From assembly GCA_038734945.1 (NCBI GenBank), contig JAVYOA010000002.1, forward strand, positions 186,001 to 250,000: a stretch of DNA of 64,000 nt. Reading direction: 5' to 3'. Numbering within the stretch: the first letter of the stretch is position 1; the number at the start of each line of letters is the position of its first letter. The stretch comes from Fervidicoccaceae archaeon. Lineage in GTDB: Archaea > Thermoproteota > Thermoprotei_A > Sulfolobales > Fervidicoccaceae. The position numbers were made by a program, and so were the translations under genes. The notes beneath the pieces are model-generated. The model had not been told where the DNA came from, ran no database searches, and saw only the letters and a program-made list of their open reading frames with translations. Positions 33,798 to 50,274 of this stretch are shown in pieces.

Positions 33798-33966
33798 CTT
33801 TCTTTTTTTGAGAATCAGGCATTATAAGATTTCTCATTGCTTCAGCCATTGTTTTTATAAATATGAAGGAGTTAATGCAGATGCTTAACTTAATGTATTC
33901 GAGCTCAAAATACACAACTATATGCTAACGAAAACAATATGAAAGGAACATTTGCATCTGAAAATT

Positions 33967-34425
33967 TTATCTGCTCTGTGATACTATTAGCTTGGCTGCC
34001 TCTGGGTCGTATTCCCAGTTCTGAGGTAGAACTCCCTTCCTCTTGTAATAGGTTGCCAGTCTCCTTATTTTGGACTCGACCTCCTGAAGCCCTTTCTTCA
34101 CGTTTTCATCCTTTGGATGTTCGGACAGATGCCTCCTTATGTTTACAGCCCTTCTCATCAGATTGTAGAGGTCCTCAGGAATGGGGGGAAGCAGCTTTTT
34201 TTCCTTCAGTATCTGGGTTATTTTTTTGTTCGTAATCGATTTCACGAGTGGTATTCCATATTGGTCTCTCAGAATTATTCCTATCATTGATGGAGGGTAG
34301 CCCCTTCTTGCCAATTCAGCAACGAGCTCCTCCACTTCCTCTGGCTCCAAGCGAAGCCATTTAGGCACTCCCACCCTGACAGGACGCATGCTGTGAGATT
34401 TTCCCTTTTCTCTCGATTTGTTCAT
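33967..34425 (-). CDS. rps15: 30S ribosomal protein S15 (S13e/uS15)
   Basis: [33 protein letters not shown]. Confidence 0.97.
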
Positions 34426-34492
34426 AGCATCTCAGCCCTTAAAGCATCTGCCAAAAAATTGGCCTTTTGAGATTATAAGCATTCTGATCGCG

Positions 34493-34711
34493 CTGACCTA
34501 AATTCCGCACTAAAGTGCAGGGTTCCTTGGGAGGCTTAGAGCTGCATTCTTAGCGAAGAATTGGTTAAGCTCTGCACAAGGTCTTATAGAATCACCTCTA
34601 CCCTGCATAATGCAGAGCTAATGGAAATGCTATCCTTCAGAGTTTTTGGAACATATAGAGCTTAAAACCTTACCACACCCTCTCCGTCCTAAAGAGAGGA
34701 AGCTTTCAGTC
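34493..34711 (-). mobile_element. Non-autonomous IS200/IS605-family element (MITE-like) with putative omega-RNA scaffold remnant
   Basis: Minus strand begins TTGC|GACTGAAAGCTTCCTCTCTTTAGGACGGAGAGG and ends GGAACCCTGCACTTTAGTGCGGAATTTAGGTCAG; both ends resemble the cleaner copy at 50222-50266; no tnpA/tnpB ORF. Confidence 0.68.
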
Positions 34712-34734
34712 GCAAGATTAAAAAGAAACGTGTT

Positions 34735-35154
34735 TTAGAGGAGCTCCGATGGCGAGAAGAAGATTCTGTATTCTCTCTCAAAGCTCTCCTTCGAATCTGA
34801 AGCATGTACTACGTTTTCCTGTATGTCCAAGGCATAGTCTCCTCTGATTGTACCAGGAGCAGCCTTCCTACCGTCCGTTGAGCCTATCATCAGCCTAACA
34901 ACATCGATCGCCGAATCTCCCTCAAGAACCATAACAACTACTGGTCCTCTGGTAGCAAAATCAACCAGATCCTTGAAGAATGGCTTCTCCCTATGGGGTG
35001 AATAGAGGGATTCTGCCTGCTCTCTGGACATCTTCAGCATCTTCAGAGCAACAATTCGGAAGCCTTTTCTCTCGAATCTTGATATGATCTCCCCTACAAG
35101 CTTTCTTTCCACTGCATCTGGCTTGATCATGAGAAAAGTTCGCTCAAGCGCCAT
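34735..35154 (-). CDS. ndk: Nucleoside diphosphate kinase
   Basis: [23 protein letters not shown]. Confidence 0.97.
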
Positions 35155-35160
35155 GGAAAT

Positions 35161-35349
35161 TTACCTCCCTGCTTGAGAGGCCCTAGCTGTCCACTTGAGC
35201 TTCTCTGGCTTTCTGTTCATTACAATCATGTTCTTGTAGCATTTCCTACTACAGAACCACTGCACGCTTCCGTCCAATCTGACAAACATGAAACCTGTTC
35301 CCGGAGCAATCTCCTTCCCGCAGAATGAGCATTTTATGAGTTTGGGCAT
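35161..35349 (-). CDS. rpl24e: 50S ribosomal protein L24e
   Basis: CSFCG..IAPGTG...FCSRKC...KWT. Confidence 0.96.
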
Positions 35350-35366
35350 CTAGCAACTACCTCCTC

Positions 35367-35606
35367 TCATTTTCCTGAGAGCCTTCTTGCCTCTCTCTCT
35401 GTTTCCCTTAGTATCAGGATATCTCCTATCCTGACAGGACCCTTTACGTTCCTAGTGAGTATCCTTCCCTTGTCCCTTCCTTCAAGAACTCTGACTCTGA
35501 CCTGAATGATCTCTCCAGTAACCCCAGTCCTGCCTATTATCTGTATGACTTCAGCTGGATAGCCAAATTCTTCTATTACAGCGGATCTTTCCTCCTTCAA
35601 ACTCAT
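35367..35606 (-). CDS. rps28e: 30S ribosomal protein S28e
   Basis: GRTGVTGE...[20 protein letters not shown]. Confidence 0.97.
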
Positions 35607-50221: not shown

Positions 50222-50262
50222 CTGACCTCCTCCCCGCCCTAAGGGGCGAGGCTTTCGGGATT
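50222..50262 (-). mobile_element. 41-bp minimal IS200/IS605-type palindrome element
   Basis: Minus strand TTAC|AATCCCGAAAGCCTCGCCCCTTAGGGCGGGGAGGAGGTCAG: target-like tetramer, one imperfect GC hairpin, TCAG end. Confidence 0.8.
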
Positions 50263-50274
50263 GTAAAAAGCTAT

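Follow-up and report, generated by a model that had tools for sequence, protein, structure and literature searches.

A protein-less, probably decaying IS200/IS605 derivative with a TnpB omega-RNA scaffold upstream of rps15 in a hot-spring archaeon

How did a structured sequence without genes come to lie beside the promoter of the ribosomal protein gene rps15, and is it aimed at that promoter? The question is raised by a 64,000-nucleotide stretch of archaeal DNA (the window, G000:C2:186001-250000, from a source genome, G000, of 1.34 Mb in 9 contigs), in which the spacer between ndk and rps15 contains a 219-bp unit. According to a preliminary description, this unit is an insertion sequence (IS) of the IS200/IS605 type that has lost its proteins and may express a stand-alone TnpB guide RNA (omega-RNA) directed at the rps15 promoter. 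Our analysis supports the first part of this proposal and not the second. Most likely, the unit is an IS608-like deletion derivative of an IS200/IS605 transposon (palindrome-associated transposable element, PATE) that carries an omega-RNA scaffold, is probably decaying and has a guide that overlaps the promoter by accident.

A gene-less element related to tnpA- and tnpB-bearing transposons

The element comprises the following parts:

34493-34711, minus strand: non-autonomous IS200/IS605 element (PATE or miniature inverted-repeat transposable element), 219 bp, boundaries set by alignment with tnpA+tnpB copies and relatives
34712-34715, minus strand: position of the target and transposon-adjacent motif (TAM), TTGC here versus TTAC in the family consensus
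34679-34711, minus strand: left end, GACTGAAAGCTT then the subterminal hairpin CCTCTC-TTTAGGACG-GAGAGG, homologous to tnpA-linked left ends
34699-34694/34684-34679, minus strand: stem CCTCTC/GAGAGG of the left-end hairpin
34660-34669, minus strand: TATA-like GGTTTTAAGC, counterpart of the GGTTTATAAGC box that precedes tnpA in full elements
34493-34637, minus strand: homologue of the TnpB omega-RNA scaffold, about 145 nt, supported by a covariance model (R1), a profile search and family covariation
34505-34520, minus strand: right-end hairpin CTGCAC-TTTA-GTGCGG
34493-34498, minus strand: right end GGTCAG

On the minus strand, the element thus reads from 34711 (GACTGAAAGC...) to 34493 (...GGTCAG), and the list of open reading frames (ORFs) of the window holds none of at least 40 amino acids within these limits. 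The size of the unit, its TTGC left junction, the TATA-like stretch, the hairpin at 34546-34561 and the GGTCAG end had already been placed correctly. Both ends harbor subterminal imperfect palindromes and no terminal inverted repeats are present; the flanking tetranucleotides (TTGC and CGCG) reveal no target-site duplication.

When the spacer was searched against its own genome, a second copy was found on another contig (G000:C9:324490-324692, 78% identity, E 9e-39), and the left end of the element matched the DNA immediately upstream of a Y1 transposase gene, tnpA (E 3.7e-7). Two full elements carrying both tnpA and tnpB are present in this genome (IS_C2, C2 ~417578-419400, and IS_C6, C6 ~192-2010). 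The left ~75 nt of the element are homologous to the stretch that extends from the left end of the full elements to just before the start of tnpA, and its right 145 nt to their last 145 nt, which end in ...GGAGGTCAG and overlap the 3' end of tnpB. In the left part, GAAAGCC and the adjoining hairpin are homologous to those of tnpA-linked ends; the stem differs from their CGCCCC/GGGGCG, with pairing kept, and the GGTTTATAAGC box of the full elements reads GGTTTTAAGC. By eye, the deletion joins the ribosome-binding region of tnpA (GGATAGC) to the start of the scaffold (CAT.CC), possibly through a CCAT microhomology. The assignment to protein-less IS200/IS605 derivatives is therefore borne out by tnpA/tnpB parents that share the same ends and the same internal scaffold within one genome.

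Elsewhere in the order, 17 tnpB-linked copies also match both ends and the scaffold. Similarity stops at GGTCAG in 16 of these relatives and at GGTCAT in the remaining one; in all 11 relatives with a detectable left end, this end directly follows TTAC, the sequence after the tetranucleotide being AA(A)C(T/C)GAAAGCC or close to it. In the source genome, TTAC likewise precedes the left end of IS_C2, IS_C6, the C9 copy and the copies at C2:334040 and C2:307497, as well as three sites holding 41-bp elements, one of which is a tandem pair. The element near rps15 is preceded by TTGC and not by the TTAC of the family, and its first base is changed (GACTG versus AACTG). A single A-to-G change after insertion would account for the TTGC.

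Folded as a single sequence, the element gives only a modest z of -1.78 against shuffles. On its own, this value would suit a spacer that contains no relic of a mobile element and is either ancestral and structured or complementary by chance. We give practically no credence to this explanation: it is refuted by the homology to tnpA/tnpB-linked ends and scaffold and by the spacers of congeners, and the second copy on another contig also speaks against it. Neither of the same-genus genomes searched (G001 and G002) has the element between ndk and rps15, as expected if the sequence is not ancestral; the precise empty site could not be rebuilt from their spacers, which are unalignable past the promoter block and too diverged for this purpose.

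The omega-RNA scaffold

A profile built from only 19 tnpB-linked scaffolds, and without any protein-less copy, provides a non-circular test of the scaffold. It matches the element with E 1e-11 over profile positions 10-153 of 154, and the match stops at the right-end boundary of the element. Seven helices (P0, P1, P2, outer P3, inner P3, P5 and P6) were read from an alignment of 25 sequences and checked, after which model R1 was built from them. P5 is the right-end hairpin and P6 pairs ACCTCC with GGAGGT beside the end. Three other helices are located in the element as follows:

34611-34615/34603-34607, minus strand: P1, in which all 5 pairs covary across the family
34568-34573/34538-34543, minus strand: outer P3 helix AGAGCT/AGCTCT
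34546-34561, minus strand: inner P3 hairpin ATTCTT-CGCT-AAGAAT

Model R1 gives 101.9 bits on the element, which belongs to the seed alignment. Across the 27 matches of the model-fitted alignment, 89.0% of the cells are paired versus 38-56% when the partners are slid by 1-3 columns, double changes affect 27 of the 39 pairs versus a shuffle mean of 14.2, and none of 500 shuffles reaches any of the five covariation measures; these figures favour structure because related sequences were used and were aligned by fitting them to the model. Of the 39 model pairs, 32-39 are kept in tnpB-linked scaffolds, 34 in the C9 copy, 29 in the element and 22-27 in the other four protein-less copies of the source genome. 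Together with the profile match, these 29 pairs indicate that a TnpB omega-RNA scaffold has been retained, as had been proposed. The losses in the element concern P2 (3/5 pairs kept), P6 (4/6) and inner P3 (3/6, despite a shifted 6-bp hairpin of its own). GGAGGA, which is conserved before the right end in the family, is replaced here by AATTTA, and this replacement breaks two of the six P6 pairs. The inner P3 hairpin has a wholly different sequence in the element and in the C9 copy and is paired in both.

Two helices of the preliminary description have to be revised. Its inner helix exists, as 34573-34568/34543-34538; the coordinates given for it (34569-34574/34537-34542) were one base off and yield 5/6 pairs. 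Its outer stem, an 8-bp long-range pairing of 34600-34607 with 34516-34523, is perfectly complementary in the element and in the C9 copy and finds no support in the family: among 27 members, 56.6% of the cells are paired and the shuffles average 55.7%, with 153 of the 500 doing at least as well. The 5' arm of this stem instead pairs locally as the covarying hairpin P1. Applied to a raw MAFFT alignment of the eight copies from the source genome, RNAalifold gave a consensus that was weak (-7.2 kcal/mol) and partly wrong, and that was replaced by the helices of the 25-sequence alignment.

The match to known RNA covariance models that had been envisaged is not found in Rfam. At gathering thresholds, Rfam returned two tRNAs only across the window; at E up to 10, the region 34380-34800 gave only a chance snoRNA-like match (14 bits versus a gathering score of 65). 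Hence, no curated Rfam family covers the scaffold. Within its own family, the scaffold of the element shares only ~70% identity with its counterparts in the resident tnpB elements. A tnpB-bearing parent of its subfamily (P1 = CTGCA-TTA-TGCAG) was not found among metagenome contigs, since exact scans of these contigs with a subfamily-specific 22-mer and 35-mer (one N) gave 0 matches.

The cognate TnpA and TnpB

The cognate TnpA (Y1_Tnp, E 7e-39) and TnpB (OrfB_IS605 and Cas12f1-like TNB domains) are intact ORFs, and the last ~40 codons of tnpB are the omega-RNA scaffold itself. One tnpB gene is placed as follows:

L006 1363-2673, minus strand: tnpB of contig C2 of the source genome, cognate TnpB family (also L007)

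In all 17 aligned members of this TnpB family, the D of GxDxG and the D of NAD, both candidate catalytic residues, are invariant. The position of the canonical RuvC-II glutamate is occupied by glycine (motif VGYP), and an invariant candidate glutamate lies ~48 residues downstream of it, in V-x-E-x-x-TS. This arrangement matches the 'RuvC-II rearranged' class of TnpB, with a predicted alternative glutamate, described by Altae-Tran et al. 2023 (PMC10691335). The pattern of the cognate TnpB matches that of a predicted-active nuclease rather than a dead repressor.

With a threshold of E <= 1e-40, this TnpB was found in none of the 7 other genomes of the family to which the window belongs. The closest TnpB, 90% identical to the copy of the source genome, is encoded in a genome of a different family (G068:C4:45903-47210, L041). 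Taken together, these two results suggest that the full elements reached the source genome by recent horizontal transfer.

Position of the guide and the rps15 promoter

The spacer between ndk and rps15 is 309 bp long (34426-34734), and both genes lie on the minus strand:

33967-34425, minus strand: rps15 (Ribosomal_S13_N and Ribosomal_S15 domains), downstream neighbour of the element on the same strand
34735-35154, minus strand: ndk (nucleoside diphosphate kinase), upstream neighbour of the element on the same strand
34720-34728: T-rich tract between the ndk stop codon and the element
34473-34492, minus strand: guide position, 20 nt flanking the right end, CGCGATCAGAATGCTTATAA = CGCGATCAGAATGC + TTATAA

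At 34473-34478, the guide position includes the TATA box of rps15. The earlier statement that the guide covers the probable TATA box of this gene is supported by the congeners, in which the box is conserved ahead of the gene, at ~-53 from the rps15 ATG: G002 shares AATGCTTATAATCTCAAAA unchanged, and G001 retains CTTATAATC. More distant relatives display a TATA-like box at a similar distance from rps15. The element lies 14 nt upstream of the box and left the promoter intact.

From this overlap came the proposal that a stand-alone guide RNA sends TnpB to the rps15 promoter, where it would act as a nuclease or as a roadblock and thereby regulate the gene or put it at risk. Nuclease-dead TnpB relatives (TldR) are known to repress promoters, and the non-canonical RuvC-II site of the cognate TnpB could be read in the same direction. 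However, the invariant D, alternative E and D of the family are what would be expected of an active nuclease, and the absence of the element from the spacers of G001 and G002 means that there is no conserved regulator there.

The sequence around the target also speaks against the proposal. TnpB requires a TAM on the 5' side of its target (Meers et al. 2023, PMC10055086). At the occupied site, which is the only perfect target and lies in cis, the guide target carries on its 5' side the GGTCAG of the element itself and not TTAC; the joint left by excision would carry TTGC, one transition away from the TTAC of relatives. The 16-nt guide has one perfect match in the genome, which is itself, the best others being three matches with 2 mismatches, none of which follows TTAC. 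No TAM therefore stands on the 5' side of a guide-matching target. Moreover, every member of this transposon family takes its guide from the DNA next to its right end, so that overlap with a promoter is no evidence of aiming; the guide covers the TATA box because the element happened to land 14 nt upstream of it, an accident of position. A guide directed at the rps15 promoter is therefore not supported, and we regard targeting of this promoter as highly improbable.

The element could also have been co-opted in cis, the retained tnpA promoter reading into rps15, or the structure and a T6 run insulating rps15 from ndk read-through. The element has the same orientation as ndk and rps15 and contains a TATA-like box. 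In addition, the motif GCCAA-TTTT-TTGGC, which includes the T6 run, lies at 34449-34463 on the minus strand, after the rps15 TATA box and just before the point at which transcription of the gene is expected to start; neither G001 nor G002 has it at this place. This motif could block read-through from the element or from ndk. However, rps15 keeps its own conserved TATA box and a Shine-Dalgarno-like GGGCTGA, as in the congeners that lack the element, and the layout equals that of a random insertion 3' of TTAC. We judge such a role to be very unlikely.

Probably a relic rather than an active device

The features described above are consistent with an element that lost tnpA and tnpB, so that its left end, with the tnpA promoter region, became fused to the ~145-nt scaffold and the right end. 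By analogy with the family, a TnpA acting in trans would excise such elements and insert them 3' of TTAC. A transcript started at the retained tnpA promoter, for which GGTTTTAAGC is the putative box facing the scaffold, would run through the scaffold and across the right end and yield an omega-RNA with the flank as guide. This RNA would be loaded onto the TnpB produced by the two full elements. TnpB would then cut the TTAC-flanked empty site left by excision, and recombination with a sister copy would restore the element, which would amount to selfish retention.

Whether the copy near rps15 still does all this is another matter. It might be fully active, with a transcript of its own, a resident TnpB loaded in trans, an excisable DNA and a TTGC empty site that can be cut, and it would then be guarded beside an essential gene. 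The same genome carries two intact tnpA+tnpB elements, 29 of the 39 scaffold pairs are kept and the 6-bp inner P3 hairpin is intact. The same GGTTTTAAGC variant is present in a high-scoring protein-less element of another genome (G144, L149). Furthermore, contigs of two further DNA runs (X5 and X6) contain the occupied site, with the same TTGC junction in X6. Nevertheless, TTGC followed by G replaces the TTAC followed by A of all 11 relatives, two P6 pairs are broken by AATTTA, P2 keeps only three of its five pairs and the scaffold shares only ~70% identity with its resident tnpB-linked counterparts; an empty site was found neither in the spacers of G001 and G002 nor in the contigs of X5 and X6. 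Full activity of this copy thus appears unlikely. Given the altered left junction, the poor pairing of P2 and the missing GGAGGA, present-day activity is doubtful, and the copy is probably decaying or immobilised. We rate a relic of such a device well above an active device, and a promoter regulator very low.

Several points weigh against the reading of the element as a decaying omega-RNA-encoding PATE. The compensated hairpins argue for fairly recent selection on an RNA or single-strand DNA structure, which sits uneasily with decay. In IS608, the third position of the target is recognised through a non-Watson-Crick contact, so that TTGC might be tolerated. The promoter activity of GGTTTTAAGC is only presumed from its counterpart in full elements. 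The cognate TnpB has a glycine in place of the canonical RuvC-II glutamate in 17 of 17 members, and its nuclease activity is a prediction that depends on the alternative glutamate. In two metatranscriptome runs of one study, of which ~3% each was read, 0 reads fell on 33800-35400, a result that speaks neither for nor against expression.

Terminal-only elements of 41 bp

The window contains a second, much shorter member of the family:

50222-50262, minus strand: 41-bp terminal-only element, which combines the beginning of the left end with a single hairpin and the tail GGAGGAGGTCAG of the right end

A TTAC (50263-50266) stands before this element, which adjoins tRNA-Ser. The hairpin at 50236, which the preliminary description had compared with the right-end hairpin near rps15, belongs to this element. 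An identical 41-bp copy lies at G000:C9 ~173554-173594, and further 41-bp elements were seen at C1:84277-84355 (two in tandem) and C9:150283-150321, each after TTAC. These elements look like the 52-bp core-deleted PATEs of Haloquadratum, terminal-only forms that arise by repeat-mediated deletion (PMC3119063). The 41-bp elements may be mobile themselves or may be produced at each site by deletion from hairpin to hairpin.

Orphan scaffolds across the order

In the source genome, model R1 finds eight full-length scaffolds, two linked to tnpB and six protein-less, all eight being in the seed. Across the order, R1 at E <= 1e-6 matches 68 of 151 genomes (337 matches, 150 of them listed), and the TnpB protein at E <= 1e-40 is found in 41 of these 151 genomes. 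Five genomes were viewed closely (G001, G002, G006, G042 and G144), with 88 R1 matches at E <= 1e-5. By eye, six of these 88 matches adjoin a TNB-domain match; five of the neighbours are truncated open frames of 54-164 amino acids, and the sixth is a 388-amino-acid open frame in G042 near a weak 31.8-bit match, which is taken to be another TnpB family. No full-length cognate tnpB lies beside any of the 88 matches in these five genomes, a lack that is unproven because short-read metagenome-assembled genomes (MAGs) lose repeats, which may explain part of the excess of orphan scaffolds.

The genome G042 (98% complete, 90 contigs) illustrates this excess, with 39 R1 matches, a best TnpB-like protein only 26% identical to the cognate one and no match to a Y1 transposase. 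G144 contains 24 scaffolds and only C-terminal tnpB stumps of at most 164 amino acids. Furthermore, the gene-less layout in which TTAC is followed by the left end, the TATA-like box, the scaffold and GGTCAG recurs in G001, G006, G042 and G144. One could go further and propose that, throughout the order, gene-less scaffold elements are both the prevailing and the most durable form of the transposon family; we consider this improbable.

Other features of the window

The DNA runs that contain the window stretch are labelled hot-springs metagenomes. The nearest named relatives of the rps15 protein come from a Fervidicoccaceae archaeon MAG (93% amino acid identity) and a Thermoprotei archaeon MAG (91%). 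One of the tRNAs reported by Rfam, a 107-nt match (46.4 bits) at 19429-19535 on the plus strand, was not reported by ARAGORN and is probably an intron-containing archaeal tRNA. A 345-amino-acid ORF (14068-15105, plus strand) with an N-terminal CxxC...CxxC zinc ribbon gave a weak, sub-threshold TNB-domain match; this match, at window position 14083 (G000:C2:200083), corresponds to the zinc ribbon at the start of the ORF and not to a TnpB. The rest of the ORF reads by eye like a pyridoxal phosphate-dependent, threonine-synthase-like enzyme.

Comparison with known elements

IS608 of Helicobacter pylori inserts 3' of TTAC, has AAAG just 5' of its left-end hairpin and finishes at the right with TCA(A/G), ~10-12 nt past the right-end hairpin. 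Likewise, GAAAGC precedes the left-end hairpin here. Unlike in IS608, the right cleavage site is TCAG, GAAC or AAAC stands before the right-end hairpin, and the element near rps15 has TTGC for TTAC. TldR systems do not move, their RuvC sites are dead, and a TAM adjoins the promoter that they target. The element resembles them in that a TnpB-family guide is complementary to a promoter; in contrast to them, the candidate catalytic D/E/D residues are invariant in 17 of 17 members, the target has no TAM beside it, and the insertion is specific to one lineage.

Transposase-free PATEs derived from IS605 were defined in the archaeon Haloquadratum walsbyi (Dyall-Smith et al. 2011, PMC3119063). Like them, the element is archaeal, has near-terminal palindromes, generates no target duplication and derives by internal deletion from IS605-type transposons. 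Among them, HqIRS71 has retained a longer terminal stretch in which C-terminal coding sequence is still present, similar to the element (PMC3119063). That report predates omega-RNA and makes no claim about RNA, and it concerns another host phylum and another sequence family.

The PATEs of Geobacillus stearothermophilus are closer in logic: they are protein-less, their ends resemble those of tnpB-bearing elements of the same genome, they depend on TnpA in trans, their guide is the right-end flank and the TAM is the target site of TnpA (PMC10055086). According to this preprint, PATEs 'often encode omega-RNAs' that TnpB uses in trans, within a homing model (Meers et al. 2023, PMC10055086). In contrast to these PATEs, the element is archaeal, its scaffold family is not in Rfam, its cognate TnpB has a rearranged RuvC-II, its tnpA promoter region is joined directly to the scaffold, and the family is known only from its sequences.

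Hence, the element belongs to a kind that is already published, the protein-less, omega-RNA-encoding IS200/IS605 derivatives; it is not new in kind because both PATEs (PMC3119063) and PATEs with trans-acting omega-RNAs (PMC10055086) are in print. The novelty is confined to an archaeal scaffold family that is undescribed and supported by covariation, to the fusion of promoter and scaffold and to the excess of orphan scaffolds. No description of this scaffold family was found in the literature searched, which did not extend to the supplements of the cited papers.

Significance

The locus itself is of little import: it is the relic of a selfish element near rps15, and the overlap with the promoter is a by-product of the insertion site. 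It nevertheless provides a clean archaeal case of omega-RNA genes outliving their nuclease, with a covariation-supported scaffold model that is absent from Rfam. Moreover, among the hot-spring archaea of this order, orphan scaffolds are more numerous than cognate tnpB genes. In the improbable case that gene-less elements are the main form of the family and that this is no artefact of assembly, orphan omega-RNAs may serve ends of their own. Their guides could then be pre-armed for an incoming TnpB, thereby biasing or blunting new invasions, or the RNAs could be exapted as small RNAs. In the same case, the guide on the rps15 side could serve as an 'addiction' guard, loss of the element leading to a cut in the promoter of an essential gene. 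The upkeep of protein-less omega-RNA elements thus becomes testable in a defined family, one that targets TTAC, ends in GGTCAG and has a TnpB whose RuvC-II site is rearranged.

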